A stretch of 64,000 bases of DNA from an uncultured archaeon (GCA_964534045.1 CAZHNO010000001.1:224621-288620); one strand, 5' to 3'; numbered from the stretch's first letter, positions 6,627 to 34,934 are shown. Numbers and translations are program-made. The notes: generated from the sequence alone by a model not told the origin.

Positions 6627-8285
6627 TTATTTAAAGTATTTGTTCCCATTGTAAGCATTTTTGTACTCTTCACTTTTTTCCAATTGATCTGGAACTCTTT
6701 TATATTTTGACAAAGGATCTTTTGCTTTTCCTTTCCAATTTGTTTTAAATTCACTCCATGAAACAGAGTATTGTTTTTGTACTTTATCTCTATAAAGTTC
6801 TGGAACAACATTGAATGCACAGAAAGGAACTATTCTTCCATCAGGCATTGAATAATGAATATTACACCTTTCTACCCTTTGCTGGTCATAATTATATGGG
6901 TCCATAAAGTGCATCATCCCAATAAATAAAGAGTTTGTATGGAATTCCCCAAGCGCAGAATAATCATGTTTTATTAGTGCATTAAACAATAGTTTTGCTA
7001 AGTTAATATTTTTTGGAGCTTTTTTTAAATTAATAAAAGAATTTATTTTTAATAATAATTTTGCTGATTCTATTTTTTTATTTGAACCATTTTTTATTGC
7101 TTCTGCTCTTTCTTTTAAAAAAGCAAATAATCCATCTACATCAACAAACTCTGGCAAGGGCATTATTTTGTTTTTTTCTTTATCTAAGAACACATATGTT
7201 GCTGCTCCGCAAGCAAAGTGATTGTCTAGTGAATATTGCACATTTTCTGTTAGTGCTTCAATAAAATCAGTAAATGATGAAACACAAGGTATTGCAAAAA
7301 AATCTTTTTCTTTTATTGCTCCTTTTGTTTGTTTTTCAATTTTTTCTATTGCCCCTGGAATAGTAATTCTTTGTTTTTCTCTTTGTGATTTTGGCATTCT
7401 TCCAACAAACGAAACTGGTTGGAAATCTATTCCTCTTATTACATCAATATTTTGTAATGCAAAATCAATTATATTCCCAATATCGTTATCATTTATTCCC
7501 TTAATTAAAGTTGGTACTAAAACTATCCCTATTCCTGCTTTTCTACATTCAGCAATTGTTTTTGGCATTTCATAATGATTTTTTGGATTCGTTTTCTTTG
7601 TTGTTCCATCAAAAGAAAGATATAAAGTTGCAACTCCTGCTTTTTTTAATTTTTGAGCATAACCCGGATTGAATGCAATAGTCATTCCTGTTGTGTTTAA
7701 TTGTATGTGTTCAAATCCTTCTTCTTTTGCAACTTTAATTATTTCAAATAAATCTTCTCTTAAAGTTGGTTCTCCTCCAGTAAATTGTATTGCATTACAT
7801 GGAACTGGACTTTCATTCTTCAAATTTTTTAGCATTAATCGTATTTGTTCAATACTTGGTTCATATATTGGGTCGCCTTCTTTTGCATAAAAGAAACAAT
7901 ACCAACAACTCAAGTCACATCTATTTGTTAGAGCAATATTTGCTAGTGCTGTGTGTGAGTGATGATTTAAACACAAACCACAATCAAATGGACAATTAGT
8001 TCCACTATTTTTTATTAAACCAACATTATTATTCAATAAGCCCCTATTTGGAGAAGCATATTTTCTTGCTCTTTCAAATTCTTTTTCTGATTCCCAATAC
8101 ATTTCATCAAAGATTCCATGTTCTGGACAATTTCTTTTTATGTAAACTTTTCCTTTTTTTGCATATATTTCAGCTTCAAGAGTTTTTTTACACTCTGGAC
8201 AAATAGAACGTGTTTTATAAGGCAATTTTTTTCCATACGTGTCTGTAACTACACTTCGTTTATTTTTTTCCAAAATAAAAGACAT
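6627..8285 (-). CDS. radical SAM protein with N-terminal zinc-ribbon (large archaeal-type, function unassigned)
   Basis: CPECKK...NCPEHG zinc ribbon, then CPFDCGLC, then the canonical CDLSCWYC (CxxxCxxC) with FTGGEPTL glycine-rich SAM motif. Conserved C-terminal DGRIVPFCAFNVV region. Confidence 0.7.
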   Translation of the reverse strand: MSFILEKNKRSVVTDTYGKKLPYKTRSICPECKKTLEAEIYAKKGKVYIKRNCPEHGIFDEMYWESEKEFERARKYASPNRGLLNNNVGLIKNSGTNCPFDCGLCLNHHSHTALANIALTNRCDLSCWYCFFYAKEGDPIYEPSIEQIRLMLKNLKNESPVPCNAIQFTGGEPTLREDLFEIIKVAKEEGFEHIQLNTTGMTIAFNPGYAQKLKKAGVATLYLSFDGTTKKTNPKNHYEMPKTIAECRKAGIGIVLVPTLIKGINDNDIGNIIDFALQNIDVIRGIDFQPVSFVGRMPKSQREKQRITIPGAIEKIEKQTKGAIKEKDFFAIPCVSSFTDFIEALTENVQYSLDNHFACGAATYVFLDKEKNKIMPLPEFVDVDGLFAFLKERAEAIKNGSNKKIESAKLLLKINSFINLKKAPKNINLAKLLFNALIKHDYSALGEFHTNSLFIGMMHFMDPYNYDQQRVERCNIHYSMPDGRIVPFCAFNVVPELYRDKVQKQYSVSWSEFKTNWKGKAKDPLSKYKRVPDQLEKSEEYKNAYNGNKYFK

Positions 8286-11300: not shown

Positions 11301-13390
11301 AAATTATCTTTTAGCTCAATTAACATTTCATTTGTTTCCTCAGCATTTTCTCTAGCGGATTCTACATCAATTGAACTATTTTTTGCAGTAAGTGCTTCTA
11401 ATTGTTGATACAAACTATACAACTGACTAGCAGTGGCAACAAGTTGAGTAACATCAGCAGCATAAGTTTTTGTTGTTCCATTTGCAACCAACATTGATTT
11501 TAGTGATAATGATGAACTTCCCATTGCCGGAGCACATGATGCTGACAAATTAGTAGCACTTGTTACTGCAGCAGTTGCGGTATCAACATTAGTTGATAGT
11601 ATTATTGCATCTGCAGATAGTGCAGAAATGCTAGTAACCAAACTTAGTATTTGACTTGCTAATTGAGTTTTTTGTGAAGTATCCAAATCACCAAGTGAAT
11701 CTTCAACTTCTTTTAATGATTCTATCGCGTCATTTAATTCATCTAATGTTTCATTAATATAACCATCAAATTCTTTTCCTTCTAAATAAGCTCTTTTTAT
11801 TTTTTCATTTTCTTGTATTGATGTTGAATATGCTGTGCTTCTAACTGAATCAATATAAGGAATGGTTTTGAAAAACATTGATTGGTATAAACCATTTCCT
11901 GCATATCTTTCTGGATTGTTGTATAAATCATTAGTCCAGTTTTTTGAATTAGTGAACGTTCCTGTTAGTGGTAAACCTGAACCAATTTCTGCGCCTAGTG
12001 AACTTTCATACAAATTACAAATACTTGAATCAATTTCTATTTCTTCAGATAATTCATTATTCATTACTCTAATAGAATCTCTTGAACCCCTTTCAAATAA
12101 AGAAATTGAAAATTTATCAGGAACTAATAATTCATTTGTTGGTTTTACAAAAATTTCTTTTTCCCCAACAAAAGTCTTGTTTATTCCTGGCAAAGAAGCA
12201 TGCACTGTTAAACCATAAATTCCAGCCAAATCAACTCTGTTAATAGTAATTGTTTTTGTTGGAGAAGATTTTGTTAAAGTAAAAGCTGATGTGTTTAGTT
12301 CAATTATTCCTTCTTCTGCTCCTCCGGAACAACCAGCATCATTGTTACACAAAAAAATATTTATTTTTTCTGAATGACATTTACTTGAATTAATTGTTAT
12401 TGTTGCAGAATCATTTTCATTTTCTATTATTGCATCAACAACATCAATTTTTATACATTGTTCTAAATTTTCATTTGCTACTTCAAAATTTATTTTTTGC
12501 TCAGAATTGTCAATTTTTAATATAACAGAAAACTTTCCTTTTTCACCTTTTTTATTTGCTAAAGGAACATAATAAATTATTGCTTCATAATCACCAATAT
12601 TTGGGGCTGAATAAACTGATAATTCATCAGGAGTTAACAAAGAACCTTTTCCATTAGAAAAAATTATTTCTACATTTCCAATTCTTTCACTACCCCATTG
12701 AACACTTGCTTTCAAATCAGAGTAAGTTTCACAAGCAACCCTTAATTTTATTGGAGCTTCTAATAAGCCAGCATGAGTAGAATCAGAAAAAAATCCTTTA
12801 TTTACTAACAAACAACCCGTGCCAATAAATTCTTCAAAAAATATTTGATAAGGAATTTGTATTGTCATTACTTCAGAACCATCTTCTGATTCAAGAGTAA
12901 TAACAAAATTAAATTCAAAAAAATTCCCATCAACTAACTCTGAGTCAATTCCCAAATCAGCAAAATCAACTGTAAAAGTTACTGAACCATCTTCATTAAT
13001 TATAATAAATTCTGATGAAATGTTTGCAACAATTACCCCCTCACTGTTTGTTATCACCACATTAGTTGGTTTTAATTGTACTCCACCAGCATCCATTCTA
13101 AGCGTAATATTTCTAGAACTATCTTGTCCAGCATTAGTTATTATTGGCCTTCCAGGATTAGAAAAAGTATCAACTAATTCTCCATTAATTGTTAAGCTTC
13201 CTGTAAAAGCAATATCATTTTGATCTGGACTAGTTATTTTTATTCTATTAGTGCCTTGTGAAGGAAAAGCCAATAAGGCAATTAATAAAATAACTATTAT
13301 TGCAACAACTATTCCAATAATTATTCTCTTATCTGGTAAAGGACTTCCTGCTTTAGGTTCCTCTCTGTTATAATAACTTTCAACCTGCAT
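8381..13390 (-). CDS. giant membrane-anchored surface protein (1669 aa)
   Basis: N-terminal signal-anchor helix (IIIGIVVAIIVILLIALLAF). The first ~550 aa are beta-rich Ser/Thr/Asn-rich extracellular sequence. Residues ~560-900 are S/T/A/L-rich alpha-helical low complexity containing a Cys cluster CCNGTYCNAGCMCP. The remainder is a large C-terminal domain. No catalytic motif recognised. Confidence 0.6.
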   Translation of the reverse strand: MQVESYYNREEPKAGSPLPDKRIIIGIVVAIIVILLIALLAFPSQGTNRIKITSPDQNDIAFTGSLTINGELVDTFSNPGRPIITNAGQDSSRNITLRMDAGGVQLKPTNVVITNSEGVIVANISSEFIIINEDGSVTFTVDFADLGIDSELVDGNFFEFNFVITLESEDGSEVMTIQIPYQIFFEEFIGTGCLLVNKGFFSDSTHAGLLEAPIKLRVACETYSDLKASVQWGSERIGNVEIIFSNGKGSLLTPDELSVYSAPNIGDYEAIIYYVPLANKKGEKGKFSVILKIDNSEQKINFEVANENLEQCIKIDVVDAIIENENDSATITINSSKCHSEKINIFLCNNDAGCSGGAEEGIIELNTSAFTLTKSSPTKTITINRVDLAGIYGLTVHASLPGINKTFVGEKEIFVKPTNELLVPDKFSISLFERGSRDSIRVMNNELSEEIEIDSSICNLYESSLGAEIGSGLPLTGTFTNSKNWTNDLYNNPERYAGNGLYQSMFFKTIPYIDSVRSTAYSTSIQENEKIKRAYLEGKEFDGYINETLDELNDAIESLKEVEDSLGDLDTSQKTQLASQILSLVTSISALSADAIILSTNVDTATAAVTSATNLSASCAPAMGSSSLSLKSMLVANGTTKTYAADVTQLVATASQLYSLYQQLEALTAKNSSIDVESARENAEETNEMLIELKDNLTSLSDYLDLALESAAINDLSTSSKEDFEAYEYLLLAKSDADNAQMVLDNSLKKHLETLDDLTTLQDDSEASEEELIIAIAQLMQQILTQIGVLETKATIIQTSLTEAQTEMVLAKATAMSYFASCCNGTYCNAGCMCPMFIASSEFAITAIASAQSNTVANIAKIANLLSTLNNIYQAWELYKALNANYLSDLINAMTKFTEMTDVLYELQLGLANFNTSLDAAIEAAKHLSELEKLSSDASTYLDSLNIPADFGEYDKEKLVGMIGTLISNGFVNGAYDGGVYTTENTMQGLYVSVFGNLEENKNKKNNLFFSEANLLEDCDNRVKLKLVDYKINLLQDAKKVVVSNPNVLAYWSFTDPQVFGVFDKQEVGVIFSNAGIKENTYATVSLNAEKHIHSPTMNVTGEFGPFNIPDDSVELIEQKYHFKVNVKPRKDYSSESNATCEKASLIGDTGKEALPKIILDWKWDAINSETAKENYLDATQFSILLTKKLGVLNEFVSSAATNCPQNYAMLALTRMTPTEFALQQEASCFLPLTTRYYDGKPAIYYHSSQEAIVPEYYDSFFDEPLISSAEQMLDLLKFDVQLIRDGYGLEFQSDFTNYYTRVFLDSSPNFTDPLKGWYIYFKQPKKFYFTNETTDFKPEYDFVIPDAGLYSVKIIADFTEFPIIENGVANSNIIIDLYLKEPIKENYSPFYYTPFDGKVGLNAANDRRYYGTALNSGSELKIAEGMILGNNQKDAFSKINVKKESNILNLNSFASKRAVLLDYSMSKTIFSPTIATPLLFELNANQGQESIMNYWLKKEKTDLKATTNNLFLLTAMPNCKDFFGTNMLSYINETPDFRIGDKYGFGFLPAENSGKVFTKTMAYSPADAFYGLAFPQGMIIETTNSIEESGLIPLEGIKGMLYNDAAITNQIDGITSLMNAVSNESVCVSKLGNREIYWWSEEYLYEKENSEGKTIANSIKKASNECIK

Positions 13391-13463: not shown

Positions 13464-14429
13464 TTAATCTCTATCAATAATTTTTGTTTTGTATTCTGAT
13501 TTTTTATTCTTCAACAAAACAATTCTTGAATTTTCTTTCTCACTCTCAAATTTATAAGAAGGCATTTTTTCTAACAATTTCTTTGAAAAATCTTGAACTT
13601 CAAAATGCGTAGGCATATTTTCTTTTTTCAATCTTTTACGCGAAAGACCAAGCCACATATAACTTTTGATTTCAACAAAATCTGCTTCTACTACTTCTAA
13701 AAGCTCAGCAAACTCTTCCAAATCTTTTTCTGAATCATTCATTCCTTTTATCAAAGTCAAACGAATTACTATTCGTGTTGGGAGTAACTTCAATAATGCA
13801 AGTGTCTTCAAATAATTCTTCCAACCATTTTTTTCTGTATTGCAAGAAATTTTTCTATAAATTTTTTCGTTTGGTGCTTGCATTGAAACGTATAATTGAG
13901 TTGGTAATGCATTTTCTTTCCATAATTTAATTAAAGCATTAGGGTTTTGTCCATTTGTTACTAAGAAAACTGTTTCTGTTGCAGGGCGAGCTTTCAATAA
14001 TTTAATTAATTTTGATAAGTGTTTGTAAAGGGTTGGTTCTCCACTCAATGAAATTGCCCAGTGTTTTTGTTGCATTGATTTATCAACAACTTCTTTATCA
14101 AGCGAACCATAAAAACCTTGTAATAATTTTTTTCTCTCTTTAACTAAATTTTCAATCATTTTTTCAGGGTTAACTTCTTTTCTTTTTTGCAACGACATAT
14201 ATTCTTTTGGACGCCAACAAAAAATACAAGCATTATTACACCAAAAAGTTGTGGGAGCAATTTGATGACAAGAAAGAGTGTCAGCTCCATAAAAGTCTTG
14301 TTTGTAACATTTTTCTTTTCCATTAGTGCGAAGAGCTTTCTTATTCCACTCACAAATCTGAATACTTGAATGTTCAAAAAAACCATATTGCTTTTTTTTG
14401 AAATCATTTATTAAAGAATCCAATTTCAT
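13464..14429 (-). CDS. taw1: tRNA 4-demethylwyosine synthase Taw1 (TYW1, radical SAM)
   Basis: QICEWNKKAL..CYKQDFYG..CHQIAPTTFWCNNACIFCWRP..AISLSGEPTLY..LVTNG..PTQLYVSMQAP..IKGMND..FVEIKSYMWLG aligns along the full length with archaeal Taw1 (e.g. MJ0257). Confidence 0.75.
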   Translation of the reverse strand: MKLDSLINDFKKKQYGFFEHSSIQICEWNKKALRTNGKEKCYKQDFYGADTLSCHQIAPTTFWCNNACIFCWRPKEYMSLQKRKEVNPEKMIENLVKERKKLLQGFYGSLDKEVVDKSMQQKHWAISLSGEPTLYKHLSKLIKLLKARPATETVFLVTNGQNPNALIKLWKENALPTQLYVSMQAPNEKIYRKISCNTEKNGWKNYLKTLALLKLLPTRIVIRLTLIKGMNDSEKDLEEFAELLEVVEADFVEIKSYMWLGLSRKRLKKENMPTHFEVQDFSKKLLEKMPSYKFESEKENSRIVLLKNKKSEYKTKIIDRD

Positions 14430-14481: not shown

Positions 14482-16029
14482 ATGAATAAAAAATTGAATA
14501 ATATTGCACAAGGAACAATTGAATATTTAGTAATTATTGCAATTATTATTGTCATTGGTTTACTTGTCGTTCAATTATCTTTGAGTTTATTTGATTCTGA
14601 AAGTGTTTCTAACACTAGTAATAAAATTGGTTCCAAAATTGGTTCTGGGAGCATTAGTATTTTAGAAGCAGTTGCTGATGATAATTCTTTAGTAATTGCT
14701 TTATCTTCAATAGGAACAGATGGAATAAATTTAACCAAAATTACTATTGATGGAGTAGAAAATTATTATGAAAATCAATACTTACTTAATGCTCGTAGTT
14801 TTATATTAACAGAATTATCAAACAATTGTGCCTGTTCTAGTATGCAGAGTTCTAGAACTTGTTCATTTCAATTCACTTACACTACAAGAAATGGTTTAAC
14901 AAAAACAACAGACCCAATAAACGTTACTATTAATTGTACAACAAACATAAATCAAGAAAATCCAAATTATACTCAACCAACAATACAAGATTGTTATGAT
15001 TTAACAGAAGATCCAATCCAAATTTGTACGCTTAGTGATTTGAATAAAATCAGAGATGATTTAAGTGCAAATTATCAACTAATGAACAATATTGATGCTT
15101 CATCTACAAACACTTGGAATAATGGAGAAGGTTGGGAACCAATCGGAGATGGAGATGAATATTTTACTGGAACATTTGATGGACAAAATTTTGAGATAAG
15201 TAATCTTTACATAAATCGAACAAATACTTATGTTGGCATGTTTGGTTGGACAAGTGGCCCAATTTCTAATGTTGGTTTAACTGATGTAAATATCACTGGA
15301 AGTAGTGGAATTGGCGGAATTTCTGGAAGAAATCATTCAACAATAAGTAATTCAAATGTTTCTGGAAATATTAATGGAAATAATAAAATTGGAGGCATTA
15401 GCGGTTTTAATTTTAGTACAATAACAACTTCACATTCAAGTGCAAACATTACTGGAACTTATGAAATTGGAGGAATATCTGGGTACATTGATGGAGGGAC
15501 AATTACTTTATCTTATTCAACAGGAAATATTACTGGAACTGGTGATAATATAGGTGGAATTTGTGGGCGTAATGAAACTGGTTCAATAACAAAATCATAT
15601 TCAACAGGGAATATCTTTGGAGAAGACAAAATTGGTGGTTTACTTGGTTATAATGATGGTGGAACAATAAGTAATTCTTATTCCACTGGAAATATAACTG
15701 CCAGTGGCAGTAGTGTTGGTGGGTTGATTGGCTCAACAACAGGTGGAACAATTAATTATTCTTATTCCATTGGAGAAGCAAGTGGAGTTAGTAATGTTGG
15801 CGGATTAGTTGGAAATAATATTTTAGGAACAGCAACAAATTCATATTGGAATGTTACAACATCAAACTTAGACACATCAGCACTCGGAGAAGGAAAAACA
15901 ACATCTGAGATGAAAACACAATCAACATTTACTAATGGAAGCTGGGATTTTGACACTATTTGGCAAATTCAAGAAGACACAACATATCCATATTTAATAG
16001 ATAATATTCAAAACCCATTACCCCAATAA
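14482..16029 (+). CDS. type IV pilin-like protein (class III signal peptide) with C-terminal GLUG-type repeats
   Basis: N-terminus MNKKLNNIAQGTIEYLVIIAIIIVIGLLVV. The C-terminal half is tandem ~22-aa repeats of the form IGGISG.N.STI.NS.S.GNITG / VGGLIG...GGTI.YSYS.G. Confidence 0.6.
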   Translation: MNKKLNNIAQGTIEYLVIIAIIIVIGLLVVQLSLSLFDSESVSNTSNKIGSKIGSGSISILEAVADDNSLVIALSSIGTDGINLTKITIDGVENYYENQYLLNARSFILTELSNNCACSSMQSSRTCSFQFTYTTRNGLTKTTDPINVTINCTTNINQENPNYTQPTIQDCYDLTEDPIQICTLSDLNKIRDDLSANYQLMNNIDASSTNTWNNGEGWEPIGDGDEYFTGTFDGQNFEISNLYINRTNTYVGMFGWTSGPISNVGLTDVNITGSSGIGGISGRNHSTISNSNVSGNINGNNKIGGISGFNFSTITTSHSSANITGTYEIGGISGYIDGGTITLSYSTGNITGTGDNIGGICGRNETGSITKSYSTGNIFGEDKIGGLLGYNDGGTISNSYSTGNITASGSSVGGLIGSTTGGTINYSYSIGEASGVSNVGGLVGNNILGTATNSYWNVTTSNLDTSALGEGKTTSEMKTQSTFTNGSWDFDTIWQIQEDTTYPYLIDNIQNPLPQ

Positions 16030-24950: not shown

Positions 24951-25002
24951 TGAATTAGTCAATTTATCAACATTTAATAACTTTCAAAACACAATCTTAT
25001 TT

Positions 25003-25725
25003 ATGCCTAAGAAAAAAGATATTTTTCGAAACAAAAGGTCAAGAGCAAAATTCGTTGCAAAAAAGATTGGAAATCTTGGTTTTTATGAAGCAATTACTAT
25101 TGCTTCTACAAGAGTTTATTTTAGAAAAAAATTATCTCCAATAAGTAAGTGGAAATTAGTTGGAAATAATGCTGGCGCAACTTTTTTTGAATTACCTAAT
25201 GGAAAAAAAATTGTTGTAAAACCAGATAATTGGAAGCCTTATCCTTTTAGTAAATTTGGTGTGAAAAATGGACAAAGAAGTTTAATTATTGTCCTTGAAA
25301 AAGTTTTAAGAAAAAAAATTAGGTTTGAAGTCCCATTAGGAAGAATAAAAACTGGTGACGGAAATTTTTATTTTGTTAGTCAAGCTGTAAAAGGAATGCA
25401 ATTAAACAAATGGTTAGCCAATGCAAACACAATTGACGCAATCAAAGTTGCACGAAATATGGGCGAATACTTAGCTGACATGCACAATAAAGGTGTTGTT
25501 CATTTAGAGGCAAGTGCTCCAAATTGGATTATTGATGGCTTGAAGCCCACACTAGTTGATGCAAAATATTTGGCTTTCAAAGAAGAGTATGATTGGCGTG
25601 GACAAAGCGGAAAAAAATATGCTTGGGAAGACGAATTAGTTAAAAATGTTAGAAGTAGTGCTATTTGGTTACCAAAAACAACTCAACAAATATTTTTGAA
25701 TGCGTATAATGAAAAGCGAAAATAA
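25003..25725 (+). CDS. atypical protein-kinase-like (RIO/Bud32-type) protein
   Basis: MHNKGVVHLEASAPNWIIDG..LVDAKYL resembles the catalytic loop and DFG region. The track ORF N-terminus overlaps the tRNA-Asp 3' exon, so I trimmed to MPKKKDIF. Confidence 0.35.
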   Translation: MPKKKDIFRNKRSRAKFVAKKIGNLGFYEAITIASTRVYFRKKLSPISKWKLVGNNAGATFFELPNGKKIVVKPDNWKPYPFSKFGVKNGQRSLIIVLEKVLRKKIRFEVPLGRIKTGDGNFYFVSQAVKGMQLNKWLANANTIDAIKVARNMGEYLADMHNKGVVHLEASAPNWIIDGLKPTLVDAKYLAFKEEYDWRGQSGKKYAWEDELVKNVRSSAIWLPKTTQQIFLNAYNEKRK

Positions 25726-26025
25726 AAATGCAAAATAAATAAGTTTTCAAAATAAACAAATTTTATTAGAATAACAAATGTTTAAATATTAGTTTTTCTA
25801 ATTTCTTTTGATGGATATCATAATGACTTCAGAATTAGCACTTGCTTTATTGCTAACTCTGGTCTATGCTGCGCTATTAGTTTTGGCTTTTATTTATTTT
25901 AGACAGGATCCAAAAAAGAAAAAAGAAATAAAAAAATAATTCCAAAAAAATACTTTTTTGAAAATGAATTTATTATTTAAATAAGAAAGTTAGTGTTAAA
26001 TAAAAAAATATTTATTAGAAAGTAA

Positions 26026-26259
26026 TTATTTTGATTCATTAATTATTTTTTTTCTTATTTGTTCTGATTGGATTGAACGCATTTGTCTTGCTAATGCTGA
26101 CAAATCTGATTCTACTTTTCTAATATCTGCTAGAATTTGTCTTTCATAAGCAGGATCTGTTAAGTTGAGTTTCTTTCTTCTTTCATAATTCTTTTTCAAG
26201 TTGTCAAGTATTCTTGATTGTCTTTCATAATCTAATTTTAACTCGTCAATTGAAACCAT
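26026..26259 (-). CDS. coiled-coil hypothetical protein (78 aa)
   Basis: Heptad-rich sequence. The track ORF starts at a TTG that would overlap the divergent gene, so I trimmed to the internal ATG (MVSIDELKLDY..). Confidence 0.3.
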   Translation of the reverse strand: MVSIDELKLDYERQSRILDNLKKNYERRKKLNLTDPAYERQILADIRKVESDLSALARQMRSIQSEQIRKKIINESK

Positions 26260-26310
26260 ACCTATTCTTTGAAAACAATCATTTAAAAAAAGAATTTTTG
26301 AAAGCTCTCT

Positions 26311-27198
26311 ATGAAGAAAACCTATTTTCCGCAAGAATTTATTGACAAATACTCTGCTTTTTTAGGAAATGAATGGCAAGATTTTTTTGAAACAATAAAG
26401 AAAAAACAACCCAAAAGTGCTTGGATAAACACCAACAAATGTCAAATTGATGAAATTTACAAAAAAATTGAAGAAAAAGACATTGTTTTTGGGAAATACT
26501 CTTTTTCTAAGCAAGCTTTTGAAATAGAAATGGAAAAACCTTCAGAATTAGAAGAATTTACCCAAGGGGAGATTGCATTACAAGAGAAGGCAGCAATGCT
26601 ACCTGCCATTGCTTTAGGTGTTGGAAAAGAGGATGCTGTGCTAGATGCTTGTGCCGCACCAGGAATGAAAACTATTCAATTAAGTAATTTTGCCAAAAAA
26701 GTTATTGCATGCGATGTTAATAGCACAAGAATAACTGCATTGCTACATAACAAAGCTAAATATAATTTAGATAATGTTGAGGTTAGAAGAGTTGATGTGA
26801 GAAATATAAAAGAAAAATTTGACAAAATTTTATTAGATGCTCCTTGTTCAAGTGAAGGATTAGTGCGAAAGAAAAGAGATGCTCTTAAAGGATGGTCACA
26901 AGCCCTTGTTGAAAGGAAATCAAAAGCACAAAAAGAATTAATTTTACATTGTTTTGATTTGTTAAAGGAAGGCGGAGAAATGATTTATGCCACTTGCTCT
27001 TTTGCAAAAGAAGAAAATGAAGATGTTGTAAATTTTTTATTGAAAAAAAGAAACGCCAAAATAATGAATGTTAATTTAGAAGGAATCAAAATCCGACCAA
27101 ACAAATTTAGTAAAAATTGTGTTAGACTTTATCCACAAGATAATAACACACAACAATTCTTTTTTGCGAAGATTAAAAAACTGCGGGAGCTTAACTAG
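26311..27198 (+). CDS. NOL1/NOP2/Sun-family RNA cytosine-C5 methyltransferase
   Basis: SAM motif DACAAPGMKT, catalytic LLDAPCSSEG and IYATCS motifs. Confidence 0.7.
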   Translation: MKKTYFPQEFIDKYSAFLGNEWQDFFETIKKKQPKSAWINTNKCQIDEIYKKIEEKDIVFGKYSFSKQAFEIEMEKPSELEEFTQGEIALQEKAAMLPAIALGVGKEDAVLDACAAPGMKTIQLSNFAKKVIACDVNSTRITALLHNKAKYNLDNVEVRRVDVRNIKEKFDKILLDAPCSSEGLVRKKRDALKGWSQALVERKSKAQKELILHCFDLLKEGGEMIYATCSFAKEENEDVVNFLLKKRNAKIMNVNLEGIKIRPNKFSKNCVRLYPQDNNTQQFFFAKIKKLRELN

Positions 27199-27201
27199 AG
27201 T

Positions 27202-27792
27202 ATGCAACTAATAAAAGCTGTTCAAAATAGGCATAGTGTCAGAGCTTTTGAAAAAAAGAAAATTCCAAAAAGTACAATCAAAAAATTAGTCAAACTGGCC
27301 ACAATGGCACCTTCAGCAGGAAATAGACAACCTTGGATTTTTTATTGCATAGATAATAAAAATAAAAGAAATCAAATATCAGAATTATTAAAATCAACAT
27401 TAGAAATTTTCAAGGAAGACATTGAAAAAAAAGAAAATAAAATCAAAAACATTATTTTGAGTTTTTATTCTGATTTAGGAGGATCCCAAAATTTAATTTT
27501 TATATTTAGAAAAAAAAGCAAAAAAGAAGAAGCACACACCTGCCCTAACGATATTGCAAGCATTTCTTGTGCTGCACAAAATATTATGCTTTGTGCACAA
27601 GAGTTTGGATTAGGCACTTGCTGGATTGGAAGTTTTAATGGACCACAAATTGAACCCAAACTAAAGACAATTTTGAATGCAAAAAATGATGAAGAACTAG
27701 TTTGTAGCTTAATAATTGGTTTTCCAAAAAAAGGTTTCAAAAAATTAAAAAGGACAAAAAAGAAATTAAACGAAATAATCAAATTTATTTAA
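27202..27792 (+). CDS. nitroreductase-family protein
   Basis: VQNRHSVRAFEKKKI...ATMAPSAGNRQPW is the canonical nitroreductase N-terminal signature. Confidence 0.7.
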   Translation: MQLIKAVQNRHSVRAFEKKKIPKSTIKKLVKLATMAPSAGNRQPWIFYCIDNKNKRNQISELLKSTLEIFKEDIEKKENKIKNIILSFYSDLGGSQNLIFIFRKKSKKEEAHTCPNDIASISCAAQNIMLCAQEFGLGTCWIGSFNGPQIEPKLKTILNAKNDEELVCSLIIGFPKKGFKKLKRTKKKLNEIIKFI

Positions 27793-27934
27793 GGAATTAT
27801 TTCAGCGCATCAAAATGTTCAAGAGAACATTGAGAAAGATGAAATAATCAAGGAATTATTTCGGCGCAATTATATTTTCCCGAGGAAATATAATAAAGCG
27901 AAATTATGGAATAATTTCGCAGCAATTATATTTT
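27791..27934. repeat. three imperfect direct repeats (~27 nt, GGAATWATTTCRGCGCAATTATATTTT) between convergent genes; the last unit includes a 9-bp inverted repeat
   Basis: Units at 27791..27809, 27850..27878, 27908..27934. Hairpin CGAAATTAT-GGA-ATAATTTCG at 27899..27919 overlaps the stop codon of the minus-strand radical SAM gene. Confidence 0.4.
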
Positions 27935-29025
27935 AAAAAGTCTAAATCTTTTTCATTAATTATTTTTTTATCTAAAAGTTTTTGAACTTCTGGAGCAATT
28001 CTTTCCATTTCTCTCAAAAGGTGTTTTATTGTTACACAAACTTCTTCAATTCCTTTTTTTGGCCATGTTGGATAATGATTTGAGTACAAACATCTGCCGC
28101 CACAAAGAGCATAATCAGAACATGAAAGACAAGGTTCTTGTATTTTCAATTTATTCGGAAGAGTGTTTGGTAAAGTGTGTTTTATGTCACCCAAATATTT
28201 TTCTCTAATGCCTTGCATTATTGGACAAGCACTAATTCTTCCATTAGGAAGAATAGTAAAATTTCCAACCCCTGAGCCACATCTTAATGAGTAGGCCTTG
28301 CCAAATAGAATTGTATTTAGAACACCAATGAAAGGGTAAAAACGCAATAAATGCCCTTTTTTTGCTTCATTTAACCAATATTCAGCTAATTTTGTTATGT
28401 CTTTGTTGTATTCTATGCTCCATTTTGAGAAGTTTCTTTTCTCATAATCATGCCACATATTCGCATCCAATTGCCAATGAACACTATTGAAAGGAAACTC
28501 TGTGTTTTCCACGAGAAAAGTAATGTCTTTGTAAAAATTGGTTGGTTCTTCTACCGCCATTCGAGCAATTACCTCTCCATTAAAACCATTTTTTTTAATT
28601 AATTTTAAATTAGAAATTACTTTTTCATAAGTGCCTTCATTTCTATTCTTATTAGTGGTTTCTTTATCACCATCAATTGAAACCAAAATAGTATGAAATT
28701 TATTTACAAATTTTTTATCTAATTTATCTAACAAAGTTCCATTTGTTTGAATTAAAAAATTGTCAACAATTCCAAGTATTTGTTTCGAAGACATTATACT
28801 TTCAATAAATGGAATGTTAAGCAATGGTTCTCCACCATAAAAAATAACACTTATTGGTTTATCATTATCTTTTGAAAAAAATTTTGCTAATTGCCCAGGC
28901 ATATAATTGGGGGCGGTTGGAACATTTTCAAATTTAATATCCGACTCTGGTTCATCAAAAGCTTTTTCACAACAATAAGCACAGCACAAATTGCACTCAG
29001 GGGTTGTAACAATGTGGTAAATCAT
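27904..29025 (-). CDS. radical SAM / SPASM-domain enzyme (anSME-like maturase)
   Basis: N-terminal CNLCCAYC (CxxxCxxC) in a TTPECNLCCAYCCEK context resembling the anSME SGCNLKCTYC motif. GGEPLL motif. C-terminal Cys-rich SPASM region CGSGVGNFTILPNGRISACP...CLSCSDYALCGGRC. Confidence 0.7.
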   Translation of the reverse strand: MIYHIVTTPECNLCCAYCCEKAFDEPESDIKFENVPTAPNYMPGQLAKFFSKDNDKPISVIFYGGEPLLNIPFIESIMSSKQILGIVDNFLIQTNGTLLDKLDKKFVNKFHTILVSIDGDKETTNKNRNEGTYEKVISNLKLIKKNGFNGEVIARMAVEEPTNFYKDITFLVENTEFPFNSVHWQLDANMWHDYEKRNFSKWSIEYNKDITKLAEYWLNEAKKGHLLRFYPFIGVLNTILFGKAYSLRCGSGVGNFTILPNGRISACPIMQGIREKYLGDIKHTLPNTLPNKLKIQEPCLSCSDYALCGGRCLYSNHYPTWPKKGIEEVCVTIKHLLREMERIAPEVQKLLDKKIINEKDLDFLKYNCCEIIP

Positions 29026-29062
29026 AGTATCTACTGAATTTGGAATAAGAAAGTGTTAAAAA

Positions 29063-29911
29063 TTAGAATTGCTTTTCAAAATTCAATCCTTTAGTATATT
29101 TCTCTAATCCTTTTCTTTCACCAATTTTTTCTTTCTTTGCACTTTTTCTATAACCTAAAACAGAATATTTTCTCATAAAAATTGGTATGTTTGAAGCAAC
29201 TCCATTTCCACCAATACAACCACCATCACAAAATAAAATATCATAAAATATTTTGTTGGGGTATTTTTTCGTTATTGAGTTGAGTTTGTTAATTCCATCA
29301 CTTGAAATTATTTCATTTTCGTTCAAAATATCTTTTGCATGCAAGGTTTTTGCCAAGCCTCCAGCAAGAGGATAAATTTTTGTATAATCATTGTAAAATG
29401 AATCAAATTTGTGAGAAACTTTTTTGACTCTTATTCTTTCTTTCAAAAGCACTTTTTTCATTTCTTTAAAAGTTATAACACAATCAATTAAACGAGAATT
29501 TTTTGCTTCAACTTTTTTTGCCACACATGGTGCTAAAAAAACTATTTTGTTTTTTGGATATTCTTTCTTCAAAATTTTTGCCATTACTATCATTGGCGAA
29601 TCAAAAGGTAACAAATATTTTACTAAGTCTGGATGTTTTGCTTTAATCAAATTAACACTTGCTGGACAAACAGAAGAAATGAACTTTTCCTGCTTTGATT
29701 TATTTTCCGAAATATATTTATGGTAAAGCTCATTAACTATTTTTGCTCCAAAAGTTAGTTCTGTTACTACATCAAAACCTATTGCTTTCATTTTTGGAAC
29801 AAATGTTTTGTAATCAAAATCAACTACAAAAGAAGGAGCAACCATCAAACAAACATTCTCTTCATGTCCAAGCAATTCTAACATTCTAATTTGATCATCA
29901 TTGTATTGCAT
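29063..29911 (-). CDS. compact [FeFe]-hydrogenase H-cluster-domain homolog (282 aa, no accessory ferredoxin domains)
   Basis: MVAPSFVVDF..GFDVVTELTFGAKIV..E aligns with the HydA H-domain start (MVAPSVR..GFD..FGAD). L1-like SSVCPAS (TSCCPGW with the proton-relay Cys replaced by Val), L2-like APCVAKKVEAK (MPCxxKxxE), DCVITFKEMKKVL (DAVITTRELAKMI), L3-like DILFCDGGCIGGNGV (ExMACxGGCxxGGGQ). Confidence 0.6.
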   Translation of the reverse strand: MQYNDDQIRMLELLGHEENVCLMVAPSFVVDFDYKTFVPKMKAIGFDVVTELTFGAKIVNELYHKYISENKSKQEKFISSVCPASVNLIKAKHPDLVKYLLPFDSPMIVMAKILKKEYPKNKIVFLAPCVAKKVEAKNSRLIDCVITFKEMKKVLLKERIRVKKVSHKFDSFYNDYTKIYPLAGGLAKTLHAKDILNENEIISSDGINKLNSITKKYPNKIFYDILFCDGGCIGGNGVASNIPIFMRKYSVLGYRKSAKKEKIGERKGLEKYTKGLNFEKQF

Positions 29912-29967
29912 TATTTTAAGAGGAAAGAGAAGTATTTAATTCTTGTTTAACTATTAAAAGCAAAAAA

Positions 29968-31236
29968 TTATTTATTCTCAACTAATTTGAAAACATTATC
30001 ATTTATTCTAACTCTTTCTTTTACTTTGATTCCAACCATGTCGCCTTTTTTTGCACTTGTTCTTTCTTTATGTTCTGTTTGCATTGACTCTAATTTCTGC
30101 TCTAAAAAAGTTGTTACTCCTTCAATAATTAATGAATCACCAATTTGCACAGGTGCAAGGACACGAACTTCTGCAACATTTATTTTCGCATAATACTTTC
30201 TAACAATTCCAACCTGGACTCTTTTTTGCTTTTGATTGCTTCCTTGAATATCAGTAATATCTTTTTCTGTTGGTTTTGAGAGGTAGAAGCCTGTTGAGAA
30301 TTTTCTATTATACACTTTCCCAAGCTCTGTGTTCCAATTAGCAATTTTTTCTTTAGTGAATGTTTTGCTTGCAACTGAATCAATTCCTTCTCTGTAAACT
30401 CTTGTTACATAAGAAACATAATCACTTGGTTTTGTTCTTCCTTCAATTTTCAAAGCACAAACTCCAGCACTAATTATTTTGTCTAAGAAGTCAATTGTTT
30501 TCAAATCTTTTGCTGAAAGAATTGTGTTTCCAAAAATTTCAACTTCTTTTTTTTCAAAATTTGGTTTATCACCATCAAGGAAAAAGGCTCTCTGCGAAGC
30601 ATTCCCGCGCGCGGATTTTTCCTCAAGGAAAAATGGGCGCCTGCAAGGTTGTAAGCATTGCCCCCTATTAGCGCTTCTTCCAAATAATTCGTGCGATAAA
30701 AAACATCTTCCTGAAATGCTTATGCACATTGCTCCGTGAATAAAAACTTCTATTCCCATTTTCAATTTGTTTGCTTTTGAAACAATTTTTTTTATTTGCT
30801 CAAGCGAAAGTTCGCGTGCAAGCACAACTCTTTTTGCACCCAATTTTTTGTATTGTTCTAATGCTAATGTGTTTGCTATTGATGCTTGTGTTGAAACGTG
30901 TAATTCTAATTTATATTTTTTTACTAAATACATTACTCCTAAATCAGAAGAAATTACTGCATCTACTTTTGCTTCTTTTGCTTTTTTTAAAATTTGTTCT
31001 ATTTTTTTTAATTCTTCATCAAAAGTTGTTGTATTTAATGCTAAATATCCTTTCACTTTATTTTCATGCAAATAATTCATTAATTTTTTTAATTCATTTA
31101 AAGTAAAGTTTGTTCCAAGGTCACGCATATTGAAACCTTTGATTCCAAAATAAACAGCATCAGCTCCATTTTTCACTGCTACAATCGCGGTTGTAAAATT
31201 TGCTATTCCTGTAAGAAGTTCTGGTTTGTTTTTCAT
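29968..31236 (-). CDS. peptidase-U32-family protein (RlhA/UbiU/TrhP-like Fe-S enzyme family)
   Basis: N-terminal TIM-barrel-like GADAVYFGIKGFNMR and signature E.FIHGAMCISISGRCFLS with a downstream RGQCLQPCRRP Cys cluster. I trimmed the start to MKNKPELL because the longer ORF runs into the divergent pilin gene upstream region. Confidence 0.7.
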   Translation of the reverse strand: MKNKPELLTGIANFTTAIVAVKNGADAVYFGIKGFNMRDLGTNFTLNELKKLMNYLHENKVKGYLALNTTTFDEELKKIEQILKKAKEAKVDAVISSDLGVMYLVKKYKLELHVSTQASIANTLALEQYKKLGAKRVVLARELSLEQIKKIVSKANKLKMGIEVFIHGAMCISISGRCFLSHELFGRSANRGQCLQPCRRPFFLEEKSARGNASQRAFFLDGDKPNFEKKEVEIFGNTILSAKDLKTIDFLDKIISAGVCALKIEGRTKPSDYVSYVTRVYREGIDSVASKTFTKEKIANWNTELGKVYNRKFSTGFYLSKPTEKDITDIQGSNQKQKRVQVGIVRKYYAKINVAEVRVLAPVQIGDSLIIEGVTTFLEQKLESMQTEHKERTSAKKGDMVGIKVKERVRINDNVFKLVENK

Positions 31237-31288
31237 AAAACAATTTAATAGCGAAACAAATTTAAATAAAAAAGAGAAACAATTTGTG

Positions 31289-32506
31289 ATGGCAAAAAAA
31301 ATTTTTGAAAAAAAAGCACAAGGAACGATTGAATATTTGGTTATTATTGCAATTGTTGTGGTTGTTGCATTAATTGTTGTTGGTTTACTAATAACTTTAA
31401 TGGGTTCTGGAGGAGATATTTCTGGAACAAGCAACCAAATAAATTATAAAACACAAACACTTGCTTTAAACGATTATTTAGTTTCAACAGACGGAAACTA
31501 TTTGTTAGAAATAAAATCAAACGAAGTTGGAAACATAACAATAGATAATATTTCTATTAATGGAGAAGACACACCCTTCACAACAAACAATACAATAAAC
31601 CTCGGACAAGAAAGATTAATAAAAATAGAATCCAGCACAACTTGTGAAGAAGGACAAAAAGTAGCCACACAAAACATAACAATAACATACACCACAACAA
31701 ATGGATTAACAAAAAAACAAACATACGAAAGTGTATCAATCCCTTGTCAAAATTATACAAATCCAAACGAAAACCAACTACTGGGTGGAACGACAAGCGA
31801 AGCATCTGAAGATGAAATTGATCCGGCCATAACCCAATTAAGAAGTGGTTTGGTTGGATATTGGCCACTTGATGAAACGAGCGGAACGACCGCTTATGAT
31901 AATTCAGGAAATGGGTATAATGGGGAATTAATTGACGGGGCAGTATTTGCTAGTGGTGGTTTAATTGAAGGCGCAGTAGATGTTGATCCAAGAAATACAT
32001 CCAATTATAAAAGAGTAATGATTGATATACCAAAACAAAATAGTTTTACATATCAAATTTGGAGTAAAAGATCTGTAACTGGACACCAAGAGCTTATTTA
32101 TAGAAGCAGTGATTCTACTTCTAGCCCATTATCAATGCTTGGTTTTGGAAATAACTCTCAATTTTTTATAAAACCATTTGGTTCGGAGCATTGGGGGCCA
32201 TCTGTTTCTTGCCCAGGCGATTATTGTTTTAGTAACATAGATATTTGGTATCACGTTGTAATAACTTATGATTCGGCAACTGGTGAACTTAAAAATTATG
32301 TTAACACTTTACCAATAATAAATCAGTCTGTTGGAGCCAGTCAAAGTGAAAGTGGAGACATACTCTTCTTTGGGGGAAGAAATACTAGTTGGGGTGGTCT
32401 AAGTGGACTAATTAGCGAAGCTGCGTTTTGGGATAGAGCATTAAGTTCGGATGAAATAGAATCACTTTATAATGAAGGAAATGGATTAAGCTTAAAAATT
32501 AGTTAA
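31289..32506 (+). CDS. type IV pilin-like protein (class III signal peptide) with C-terminal LamG/concanavalin-A-like lectin domain
   Basis: MAKKIFEKKAQGTIEYLVIIAIVVVVALIVVGLL. The N-terminal ~170 aa are ~85% identical to 4452. The C-terminus (GYWPLDETSGTTAYDNSGNGYNG...DIWYHVVITYDSATGELKNYVN...LISEAAFWDRALSSDEIESLYNEG) is a classic LamG-type jelly-roll pattern. Confidence 0.6.
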   Translation: MAKKIFEKKAQGTIEYLVIIAIVVVVALIVVGLLITLMGSGGDISGTSNQINYKTQTLALNDYLVSTDGNYLLEIKSNEVGNITIDNISINGEDTPFTTNNTINLGQERLIKIESSTTCEEGQKVATQNITITYTTTNGLTKKQTYESVSIPCQNYTNPNENQLLGGTTSEASEDEIDPAITQLRSGLVGYWPLDETSGTTAYDNSGNGYNGELIDGAVFASGGLIEGAVDVDPRNTSNYKRVMIDIPKQNSFTYQIWSKRSVTGHQELIYRSSDSTSSPLSMLGFGNNSQFFIKPFGSEHWGPSVSCPGDYCFSNIDIWYHVVITYDSATGELKNYVNTLPIINQSVGASQSESGDILFFGGRNTSWGGLSGLISEAAFWDRALSSDEIESLYNEGNGLSLKIS

Positions 32507-32588
32507 ATTATTTTAAAAAAAATAACCCTTAAACAACAAAATTCTTTTTCTCAATTAGCTTTTTAAAAAGAAGCTTGTGAATTTTTTT

Positions 32589-33017
32589 ATGTCAAAGGTT
32601 TATTTTTCGTTGCATGAAGCTAATGAGATGGTTCCAAAAATTAAAGGTAAAATTAATCGAATTATGCAATTAAGAGATGAGTTGGAATTATTAGATAATA
32701 CTAAAATAGAATTTGATGAAGAAAAATTAGAAAACTATTTATTAGAAGTTGAGTTGAACAAAAATTTTCATGAAAAAAGTTTAGAGCTTTATTCTTTGCT
32801 TGGAGAGTTAATAAAGCAGGGTTGTGTTGTTAGAAAGTTAGATAATTTGGAAGTGGATTTTTATTCTAGTTTAGATAATAGAGATATTGTTTTTTGTTGG
32901 CAACCTGGTGAAGGTAGAATAAATTATTGGCACTTGCCTCATGAAGGAAGTAATGTAAGGCGCCCTATTAAAGAAATTGAGAAAAAATACTTGGAAAAGT
33001 TGAATGAATTCAAATAA
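32589..33017 (+). CDS. hypothetical protein upstream of rpoH (143 aa)
   Basis: The track ORF starts with GTG; I trimmed to the ATG (MSKVYF..). No recognised family. Confidence 0.35.
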   Translation: MSKVYFSLHEANEMVPKIKGKINRIMQLRDELELLDNTKIEFDEEKLENYLLEVELNKNFHEKSLELYSLLGELIKQGCVVRKLDNLEVDFYSSLDNRDIVFCWQPGEGRINYWHLPHEGSNVRRPIKEIEKKYLEKLNEFK

Positions 33018-33219
33018 TTCAAAAAATTATTCAAACTTACAAAAATCAGCTTTTTTGGAACTTTTGTAGCAACACTTTTAAAGCTTTGCAAGCAAAAATT
33101 GATTACAATTTAGCGATTGTTTTCGCTTTGAAATTTTGTGGTGAGCTTGAGTACTTTAGGGTTATTTTTTTATTTGAAAAAAATTTTCCTTGACTTAACT
33201 TTACAAAATTCTAAAAGAA

Positions 33220-33462
33220 TTGCCTGGTGATTGGTTGGCTGATGAAAAAAGACACTATTTAGTTCCTGAACATGTACTTATCAGGAAAGAGAAAGCCGAC
33301 GAATTAATGAATGAACTAGGAATAAAAAAAGCTTCTTTGCCAAAAATTTCTAAACTTGATCCTGCTGTAAAAATTTTGAAGGCAGATAGGGGAGATGTTG
33401 TAAAAATTATTAGAGATTCTTTAACAGCTGGACAAACTACTTATTATCGGAGGGTTGTTTAA
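33220..33462 (+). CDS. rpoH: DNA-directed RNA polymerase subunit H (Rpo5)
   Basis: HYLVPEHVLIRKEKADELMNELGIKKASLPKISKLDPAVKILKADRGDVVKIIRDS matches the RpoH fold. The only in-frame start is TTG (first ATG is at residue 30). Confidence 0.7.
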   Translation: MPGDWLADEKRHYLVPEHVLIRKEKADELMNELGIKKASLPKISKLDPAVKILKADRGDVVKIIRDSLTAGQTTYYRRVV

Positions 33463-34934
33463 TGGCTGAACTTGGTTGGGAATTAATTGATTCTTATTTA
33501 AAAAGTAAAAGAATTGCACAAATGGAAATTGAATCTTTTAATCAATTTGTTGATACTAAATTACAAGATATTGTTGAAGAAAACAAGGATATTGTTCCAA
33601 AAATTGAAGAAGTTAAAATTGAATTAAGTAATATTGAAGTTGAAAAACCAAAAATAATTGAAGCTGATGGTTCTCCTAGAGAACAATTTTTACCAATGGA
33701 AGCTCGATTGAGAAATAGAACTTATGCAGGTCCATTGTATTTGACAATGAGACTTTATAGAAGAGATGTTGAACAGGACGCTAGAAGAACTTTTATTGGA
33801 GATCTTCCACTAATGGTTAAATCTGCTAAATGTTGGCTTGCTGAAATGAATGAAGAAGAATTAGTTGGAGCTGGAGAAGACCCAATGGATATGGGTGGTT
33901 ACTTTATTGTTAATGGTTCTGAAAAAGCACTAATGACACAAGAAGTATTGTCAAGTGATAGAGTACTAATTTCTGAAAGTGATAAGGGAGTTGCTGCTGA
34001 AGTAATTTCTACAAGAGGAGCTTTCAAAGGAAGAGTAAGAGTAACAAGAAGTCCTGAAGGATTATTGTATGGAACATTCCCAACAAGCCCAAGAAAATTA
34101 CCTTTATTTACATTATTCAAAGCACTTGGATTAAAAACACAAAAAGAAATTTTTGATGCATTCCCTGAAGAAATAGAAGTTCAAAATGATTTACACTTAA
34201 ATTGGGAAGAATGTGATATTAAAAAACAAGAAGATGCGTTGGATAAAATTGGAAAATATGTTGCACCAGGACAAGTAATTGATTATAGATTAAGAAGAGC
34301 AGGAGAAGTAATTGACGGATTTTTATTACCACACATTGGACAAGATGATCCAGCAAGATTAGCAAAAGCATATTACTTAGCAATGATGGCAACAAAAGCA
34401 ATTGAAAGAAGTTATGGTTTAAGAGGAAAAGATGATAAGGATCATTACACAAATAAAAGATTAGAATTAAGTGGAAAATTAATGGAACACTTATTCAGAT
34501 ACTCATTCAAATATTTTGTAAAAGATTTAAGATTCCAAATTGACAGAACAGTTACAAGAAGAAGAAAATTAAATATTTCTACAATTGTAAGACCTGGAGC
34601 TGTTAGTGAAAGAATTAGATTTGCAATGAGCACTGGTAATTGGATTGGAAGAAGTACTGGTGTAGCAAAATTCATGGATAGAGTAAATTATTTAGCTCCA
34701 TTAACTGATATGAGAAAAGTAAAATCACAATTAGCAAAAACTAGAGAACTTTATGAAGCAAGAGATGTTCATGGAACACACTGGGGAAGATTAGATCCAA
34801 TTGAAACTCCTGATGGACCACAATGTGGATTAGTAAAAAATTTATGTTTCATGGCTGAAGTAACAACAGAAGCAAGAGAAGAACCTATTGAGGATTTCTT
34901 ACATCAACAGGGAGTAAAATTAAAGAAAATTTAA
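33462..34934 (+). CDS. rpoB2: DNA-directed RNA polymerase subunit B'' (N-terminal part of split Rpo2)
   Basis: Full-length similarity to the archaeal Rpo2N pattern; start overlaps the rpoH stop (ATGs... TAATGG). Confidence 0.85.
   Translation: MAELGWELIDSYLKSKRIAQMEIESFNQFVDTKLQDIVEENKDIVPKIEEVKIELSNIEVEKPKIIEADGSPREQFLPMEARLRNRTYAGPLYLTMRLYRRDVEQDARRTFIGDLPLMVKSAKCWLAEMNEEELVGAGEDPMDMGGYFIVNGSEKALMTQEVLSSDRVLISESDKGVAAEVISTRGAFKGRVRVTRSPEGLLYGTFPTSPRKLPLFTLFKALGLKTQKEIFDAFPEEIEVQNDLHLNWEECDIKKQEDALDKIGKYVAPGQVIDYRLRRAGEVIDGFLLPHIGQDDPARLAKAYYLAMMATKAIERSYGLRGKDDKDHYTNKRLELSGKLMEHLFRYSFKYFVKDLRFQIDRTVTRRRKLNISTIVRPGAVSERIRFAMSTGNWIGRSTGVAKFMDRVNYLAPLTDMRKVKSQLAKTRELYEARDVHGTHWGRLDPIETPDGPQCGLVKNLCFMAEVTTEAREEPIEDFLHQQGVKLKKI

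Follow-up and report, generated by a model that had tools for sequence, protein, structure and literature searches.

The locus

A stretch of 64,000 nucleotides from an uncultured archaeon (GCA_964534045.1, CAZHNO010000001.1:224621-288620), referred to here as the window, was analyzed with respect to three genes on its minus strand; all searches in the window cover these 64 kb of a contig of about 314 kb. The genes encode a radical S-adenosylmethionine (SAM)/SPASM enzyme of 373 residues (27904-29025), a protein of 282 residues made up of a single [FeFe]-hydrogenase H-domain (29063-29911) and a U32-family [4Fe-4S] protein of 422 residues (29968-31236). An earlier note on this DNA had described three genes running head to tail with gaps of 37 and 56 nt, and the listing of open reading frames (ORFs) gave the same arrangement. 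The mechanical ORF of the U32 gene extends to a TTG at 31434, but homologs begin MK(N)KPELL and the ATG at 31236 was therefore taken as the start. Plus-strand genes bound the trio on both sides. Below it lie a convergent nitroreductase gene and a gene for an RsmB/F methyltransferase, and above it a divergent gene for a pilin-like LamG protein, followed by DUF2203 and the rpoB/rpoA cluster. In the window rpoB is split, class III signal peptides of the archaeal type occur and the GC content is about 30%, and the closest homologs of all three genes carry Iainarchaeota/Diapherotrites labels; the host is a DPANN (Iainarchaeota-like) archaeon. The product of the central gene is, with a probability of about 0.85, one of the group E "ultraminimal" [FeFe] hydrogenases. 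The TIGR04084-type radical SAM enzyme and the U32 protein beside it are most likely unrelated enzymes of a housekeeping type.

Domain, motifs and fold of the 282-residue protein

Fe_hyd_lg_C (PF02906) matched the 282-residue protein with an E-value of 3.3e-40 over profile positions 2-244 of 245, which bears out the earlier claim of an end-to-end alignment with the catalytic domain of [FeFe] hydrogenases. It was the only domain found (residues 19-235), again as claimed, there being no ferredoxin-like accessory domains, and the protein ends about 45 residues past the L3 motif. The motifs VAPS (residues 24-27), SSVCPAS (79-85), PCVAKKVE (128-135) and FCDGGCIGG (227-235) were all present. Four of the six cysteine residues are predicted cluster ligands. 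In the HMMER alignment to CpI of Clostridium pasteurianum, C82, C129, C228 and C232 corresponded to C300, C355, C499 and C503, K132, the CN-binding lysine, to K358 and A25-P26-S27 to the APS motif of CpI. C82, C129, C228 and C232 are thus the predicted ligands of [4Fe-4S]H, and C232 would bridge to the [2Fe] subsite. The proton-relay positions are altered, with V81, L62, L101 and K65 replacing C299, E279, S319 and E282 of CpI. The valine in SSVCPAS accordingly stands in the place of the relay cysteine, as the earlier note had read it.

Conservation was assessed in an alignment of 28 homologs. The four cubane cysteines, which the earlier note had reported as complete, were invariant, and so were K132, A25-P26, S105-P106, Y180-P181 and G184-G185. 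Position 81 was V, T, P or A and never Cys. The structure prediction that had been proposed as a check was run with AlphaFold2 and gave a model with the [FeFe]-hydrogenase fold, a predicted local distance difference test (pLDDT) score of 90.4 and a predicted template-modelling (pTM) score of 0.90. When the model was compared with the PDB using Foldseek, the best 50 matches listed were all [FeFe] hydrogenases, with query TM-scores (TMq) of 0.65-0.78. The full-length domain, the confident model and the more than 1000 homologs found in a word-indexed protein search rule out a pseudogene or a chance ORF.

Assignment to group E

Group E "ultraminimal" [FeFe] hydrogenases were defined by Greening et al. 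(Cell 2024; PMC11216029) in DPANN archaea, namely Iainarchaeota, Micrarchaeota and Nanoarchaeota. These proteins have a mean length of 286 residues and consist of the H-domain only; the ligating cysteines are kept and the proton-transfer residues are altered. The enzyme of Ca. Forterrea multitransposorum (Fm) has a single [4Fe-4S] cluster, binds synthetic [2Fe]adt with defined Fourier-transform infrared (FTIR) states and catalyses bidirectional H2 turnover with a bias toward H2 production (PMC11216029). The 282-residue protein was 42% identical to Fm over residues 1-281 (E 7e-75). The window hydrogenase was also scanned against GTDB species genomes, yielding 274 relatives, of which the best 80 loci were analyzed for gene neighbourhood. 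Locus L077 lies on the complete Ca. F. multitransposorum chromosome (CP045477.1) and encodes a hydrogenase of 286 residues. It was taken as the Fm gene because these genomes have one hydrogenase each and the length fits the tagged Fm protein of 33 kDa (PMC11216029).

The top 120 homologs from the word-indexed search were 213-351 residues long (nearly all 270-330), contained PF02906 only and had DPANN names wherever they were named. An exhaustive HMMER search over 1.84 billion representatives returned about 30 short representatives of 256-310 residues, scoring 140-333 bits. Below these was a plateau at about 110-136 bits, occupied mostly by proteins of 360-1000 residues plus short fragments, in which the match starts near residue 60-75; the plateau proteins are relatives with an extra N-terminal domain. 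In a neighbour-joining (NJ) tree the short proteins stood apart from the long ones, and the window protein fell into an Iainarchaeota sub-clade, called clade A here, within the short family that holds Fm. A missing relay cysteine, the lack of accessory domains and the lack of HydEFG are published traits of the family, and the protein was therefore filed as a member of group E; its DPANN host agrees with this.

The assignment disposes of two suggestions of the earlier note. The protein is not an undescribed minimal hydrogenase, as it belongs to a published group with a characterized relative, and a sensory role is unsupported because neither a PAS nor any other signalling domain is present. Other classes were also rejected. 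Group A would require TSCCPxW where the protein has SSVCPAS, and TIGR02512 scored 67 bits against a cutoff of 406. The "minimal" group A1, with a mean length of 363 residues, was rejected because the protein resembles Fm and because of its motif and NCBIfam scores. A group C or D sensory hydrogenase was rejected since PF02906 is the sole domain, with no C-terminal PAS or signalling domain and no N-terminal Fe-S domain.

H-domain-only relatives with 39-48% identity were also found on contigs labelled as candidate phyla radiation (CPR)/Patescibacteria (Dojkabacteria, Saccharibacteria) or merely as "bacterium" (loci L041, L054, L066, L068, L069, L072 and L075, also L044, L061 and L070). This suggests DPANN-CPR gene transfer or mis-binning.

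The flanking radical SAM and U32 proteins

The 373-residue protein matched Radical_SAM (Pfam, E 6e-15) and, over the entire profile (1-347 of 347), TIGR04084, the AF0577-type family, with 297 bits against a cutoff of 225. The CX3CX2C motif lies at residues 11-18 and a seven-cysteine SPASM pattern follows (C249-x12-G-x4-C267 and C299-x2-C-x5-C-x3-C312, plus C330). The Pfam SPASM model did not reach E 0.01 on this protein, and motif and NCBIfam evidence was used instead. Of the earlier description as an anSME-like radical SAM/SPASM enzyme, the radical SAM/SPASM part was thus confirmed and the anSME part was not, the anSME models TIGR03942 and NF010321 scoring 62-64 bits against cutoffs of 349-441. 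Models for known maturases of ribosomally synthesized and post-translationally modified peptides were all far under their cutoffs, and no precursor-peptide gene was evident near the radical SAM gene. Literature matches for TIGR04084/AF0577 were confined to accession numbers with no bearing on the family. The public (NCBI-sourced) version of the protein has 361 residues. The 373-residue start (MIYHIVTTPECNLCC) agrees with the homologs and includes the first cysteine of CX3CX2C; the start given in the deposited record therefore probably truncates the protein.

TIGR04084 is a broad archaeal family. Homologs with 45-51% identity occurred in Aenigmarchaeota, in another Iainarchaeota genome and in Bathyarchaeia, in purine-biosynthesis, Dph2 and MFS/polyprenyl-synthase contexts, and none of them had a hydrogenase or U32 gene beside it. 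No hydrogenase was found near the TIGR04084 gene in any of 80 Bathyarchaeia-type metagenomic loci.

Peptidase_U32 (PF01136) matched the 422-residue protein with an E-value of 2.8e-78. The cysteine cluster to which the earlier note had pointed is present (C171-x6-C178-x15-C194-x3-C198), yet it is typical of the family: CX6CX15CX3/4C is a recurrent [4Fe-4S] motif of U32 families, in which the characterized enzymes include rRNA and tRNA hydroxylases (PMC6747719). The C-terminal part resembles the beta-barrel of EF-Tu domain 2 and U32_C; the Pfam U32_C model gave no match to the window proteins at E 0.01. Equivalog identity with TrhP (221 bits, cutoff 534) or UbiU (175 bits, cutoff 440) was rejected. 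The protein is probably an O2-independent hydroxylase-type enzyme. Homologs with 49-60% identity were found without hydrogenase and without radical SAM neighbours of this kind; a radical SAM gene near the U32 gene in locus L088 was tested and is not a TIGR04084 member.

Conservation of the gene neighbourhood

The earlier note had suggested that the three genes could belong to one system or module. The 80 loci comprised 30 species-level loci of clade A, with hydrogenases 52-71% identical to that of the window, and 50 others from Nano-, Woese- and Pacearchaeota, CPR-labelled contigs and Fm. Within clade A the hydrogenase was accompanied by a TIGR04084 radical SAM gene in 27 loci, by U32 in 25, by RsmB/F in 26, by DUF2203 in 21 and by rpoB in 16. 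The order U32-hydrogenase-radical SAM was kept in 25-27 of the 30 loci, as part of a syntenic block of about 10 kb. A junction was counted as tight when the gap was 300 bp or less. This was the case for hydrogenase and radical SAM in 19 of 28 loci and for U32 and hydrogenase in 19 of 27, compared with 17 of 21 for DUF2203 and U32, which are divergent and presumably unrelated, and 10 of 25 for radical SAM and RsmB/F. The junctions of the trio are no tighter than the unrelated DUF2203-U32 junction.

Opposite-strand ORFs separated the hydrogenase from the radical SAM gene in at least six clade-A loci and U32 from the hydrogenase in at least four, and one clade-A locus (L008) has no radical SAM gene; a single transcript is therefore not conserved. 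In several clade-A genomes the insert between hydrogenase and radical SAM is an opposite-strand ORF of 100-206 residues that evolves fast and is strongly basic, being rich in K/R (L001 3478-3930, L003 1645-2262, L009 10895-11425, L010 4721-5281, L014 12140-12760 and L016 10857-11168). Apart from such ORFs and unrelated genes, nothing was found when the enlarged hydrogenase-radical SAM gaps of the relatives were searched for ORFs encoding a ferredoxin or a precursor peptide.

The picture differed outside clade A. The earlier note had taken a lack of synteny in related genomes as evidence against its proposal, and the linkage was indeed absent in 49 of the 50 other loci, whereas within clade A the synteny holds as described. 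U32 was near the hydrogenase in 0 of the 50, Fm included. A radical SAM gene was near it in one (L058), about the level of chance; its product is TIGR04084-like with 40% identity, and the gene directly adjoins the hydrogenase gene tail to tail. Among the neighbours that recurred in these loci were the alpha and beta subunits of 2-oxoacid:ferredoxin oxidoreductase (14 loci each), in line with the role in fermentation, coupled to ferredoxin, that PMC11216029 proposes. Two other recurrent clusters were provisionally read from sequence, one as a metallo-beta-lactamase/RNase Z-type protein (18 loci) and the other as ADP-forming acetyl-CoA synthetase (10). In Fm, TYW1 (L077 8974-9987) lies immediately upstream of the hydrogenase gene and a SUF operon (NifU_N, SufD, SufB, SufC) on the other side.

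The most plausible reading of the linkage is synteny peculiar to this lineage, among Fe-S enzymes that are unrelated and lie beside an RNA-polymerase gene cluster, because unrelated neighbours are kept equally well, inserts break the trio and both flanking families occur widely without a hydrogenase nearby. The proposal of a functional module is therefore not supported: the synteny is confined to clade A, is no tighter than that of unrelated neighbours and is interrupted by opposite-strand genes. In the present genome the U32 and radical SAM genes may share a transcript with the hydrogenase gene or be transcribed apart from it.

An older relationship between the two flanking genes could also account for the order, if U32 and the TIGR04084 enzyme were an ancestral pair with one translation-related substrate and a single Iainarchaeota lineage had acquired the hydrogenase gene in between. 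Dph2 immediately precedes the radical SAM gene in L083 (5062-7116) and U32 in L089 (5348-7188), in each case in the same orientation, which hints at an older Dph2-U32-radical SAM neighbourhood or a shared translation-related role; no Dph2 gene was found in the window or the 80 hydrogenase loci. U32 stands beside an RNA-polymerase/ribosomal-protein cluster both in the window and in L089. A stand-alone U32_C-like barrel ORF occurs 0-6 kb from the radical SAM gene in 15 of the 80 Bathyarchaeia-type loci (L095, L098, L116, L117, L121, L123, L126, L128, L130, L135, L141, L145, L150, L154 and L156). It encodes about 90 residues (Peptidase_U32_C, E 6e-6), is similar to EF-Tu domain 2 and is homologous to the C-terminal barrel of the U32 protein. 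The rRNA and tRNA hydroxylases of the U32 family and the sub-cutoff TrhP match point in the same direction. However, these are a handful of contexts, the Bathyarchaeial synteny may be lineage inertia, and the two genes lie apart in L081, L085, L087 and L088. An ancestral pair is therefore considered unlikely, and lineage-specific synteny of unrelated genes is preferred.

Maturation and proposed function

The earlier note had seen no HydE, HydF or HydG in the window, and this was borne out by the ORFs with CX3CX2C and P-loop motifs. The CX3CX2C ORFs were the TIGR04084 radical SAM gene, Tes (716 bits) and TYW1 (333 bits), with no HydE or HydG among them. The SPASM-type architecture of the TIGR04084 enzyme differs from that of HydE and HydG. 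No HydF-like GTPase was identified in the window; of two P-loop ORFs found, one is probably EF-1alpha, judged by eye from its N-terminal sequence, and the other had no NCBIfam match. Full HydEFG sets occur in five of 130 archaeal genomes with [FeFe] hydrogenases, and an alternative maturation pathway was judged likely (PMC11216029). The main text of that paper does not mention radical SAM or U32 proteins.

The lack of HydEFG in the window, and likewise in the majority of archaeal genomes that carry such genes (PMC11216029), would also suit a protein that has the H-domain fold without a [2Fe] subcluster and is not a hydrogenase in vivo, such as a Nar1/NARFL-like or sensory [4Fe-4S] protein. The absence of the canonical relay cysteine and of the Glu/Ser/Arg proton path fits such a function, as do the Fe-S enzymes flanking the gene in this lineage and the SUF operon flanking Fm. 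It is nevertheless very doubtful. Fm binds [2Fe]adt and turns over H2 in both directions (PMC11216029), the family keeps the residues of the [2Fe] site (K132, APS, Y/F-P-x-x-G-G and C232) with little or no variation, a signalling domain is lacking, and the genes of relatives are coupled to ferredoxin-reducing oxidoreductases.

It is highly improbable that the clade-A TIGR04084 enzyme, possibly with the U32 protein, is a maturase or modifier in a route by which archaeal [FeFe] hydrogenases receive their [2Fe] subcluster, or a substitute for it, without HydEFG: the shared strand and short gaps in the window, an order kept down to 52% hydrogenase identity, the adjoining gene in L058 and the expected alternative pathway speak for it, but RsmB/F and DUF2203 are kept equally well, the junctions are not especially tight and are broken by opposite-strand ORFs, L008 lacks the radical SAM gene, the other 50 loci give a single convergent case, the family lives elsewhere in unrelated contexts, and the architecture is unlike that of HydE and HydG.

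For the group E hydrogenase, a mode of action can be proposed by analogy with Fm (PMC11216029). A solvent-exposed [4Fe-4S]H cluster would be held by C82, C129, C228 and C232, and the [2Fe] subcluster would be bridged to it via C232, with K132 and the APS and GG motifs keeping it in place. Reduced ferredoxin would donate electrons directly to the exposed cubane and protons would arrive by a non-canonical route, so that fermentative reductant could be disposed of as H2.

Several points weigh against a working group E hydrogenase in a merely syntenic setting. The tree behind the group E placement is rough, was rooted at the midpoint and carries no support values. Fm, the characterized reference, is only 42% identical. 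Without HydEFG the [2Fe] subcluster may never be installed in vivo, the activity of Fm having been obtained with a synthetic cofactor. The proposed electron donor is taken from Fm, genes for a ferredoxin or a 2-oxoacid oxidoreductase not having turned up in the window. Finally, the same-strand gaps of 37 and 56 nt could still give one transcript in this genome.

Group E enzymes, the smallest hydrogenases known, attract interest as streamlined H2 catalysts and in relation to DPANN fermentation. The window adds one sequence from a well-populated Iainarchaeota sub-clade that has no characterized member, and the overall picture is unchanged. How archaea mature [FeFe] hydrogenases without HydEFG is an important question, but the neighbourhood does not single out the adjacent radical SAM gene. 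Ruling out the tempting reading of a "maturase next door" is useful in itself.

Other features of the window

The intergenic region between the convergent radical SAM and nitroreductase genes (27793-27903; the features lie within 27785-27905) is structured, with an RNA fold z-score of -4.37. It contains two 18-nt direct repeats, GCGCYGAAATAATTCCTT, as exact or near-exact copies where none is expected by chance, and each copy is part of a GAAATAAT/ATTATTTC hairpin. The region marks where the minus-strand block ends at its 3' side and may be a bidirectional terminator. Scanning 25000-34000 against Rfam gave no match. TATA-like and oligo-T strings occur within the AT-rich 37- and 56-nt gaps and are uninformative at 30% GC.

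The Tes gene (tetraether lipid synthase) encodes a radical SAM protein of 552 residues at 6627-8285 on the minus strand, its 716 bits comparing with a cutoff of 450. Lipid biosynthesis is generally considered absent from DPANN archaea, which makes the presence of Tes notable. TYW1 (wyosine radical SAM) lies at 13464-14429 (minus). Between the two is an ORF of 1669 residues (8381-13390, minus) with an N-terminal hydrophobic stretch that, by eye, is a possible transmembrane segment. Three plus-strand ORFs (4452-5783, 14482-16029 and 31226-32506) share the archaeal class III signal/pilin-like N-terminus QGTIEYLVIIA. The last of these, the divergent gene next to U32, also has the LamG (concanavalin-like) domain.

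Comparison with known systems

The U32 protein shares the U32 domain and the CX6CX15CX3C [4Fe-4S] motif with the O2-independent hydroxylases UbiU/UbiV, TrhP and RlhA, and differs from them in being archaeal and in scoring under the TrhP and UbiU equivalog cutoffs. anSME and peptide maturases such as PapB are distant relatives of TIGR04084, the family into which the radical SAM enzyme itself falls. HydE and HydG are also radical SAM enzymes, whereas the three radical SAM genes of the window are TIGR04084, Tes and TYW1.

Among hydrogenases, groups B, C and D (the monomeric B1 and the putative sensory HydS types) are the nearest non-minimal relatives, and most of them also lack the CC relay. TIGR04105 of group B1 was the best NCBIfam match of the window protein, at 144 bits and thus under the B1 cutoff of 450. 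These proteins differ by an N-terminal domain of about 60 residues, presumably a ferredoxin-like 2[4Fe-4S] domain, and often by long C-terminal extensions, giving 480-1000 residues in total. Group A (CpI and CrHydA1) shares with the window protein the H-domain fold (TMq 0.65-0.78), all four cysteines of the cluster and the equivalents of K358, APS and P324. Identity is about 20%, however, and the window protein lacks the TSCCP relay cysteine, the E279/S319/E282/R286 path and the F-domains and has condensed loops. Fm differs in having N rather than V at the relay position, in belonging to a different sub-clade and in the location of its gene between TYW1 and a SUF operon instead of between U32 and a radical SAM gene. 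Fm and the window protein are alike in that both are single H-domains (286 and 282 residues) with four cysteine ligands, the lysine and the APS and GGC(I/V)GG motifs, without accessory clusters or relay cysteine, in DPANN hosts without HydEFG.

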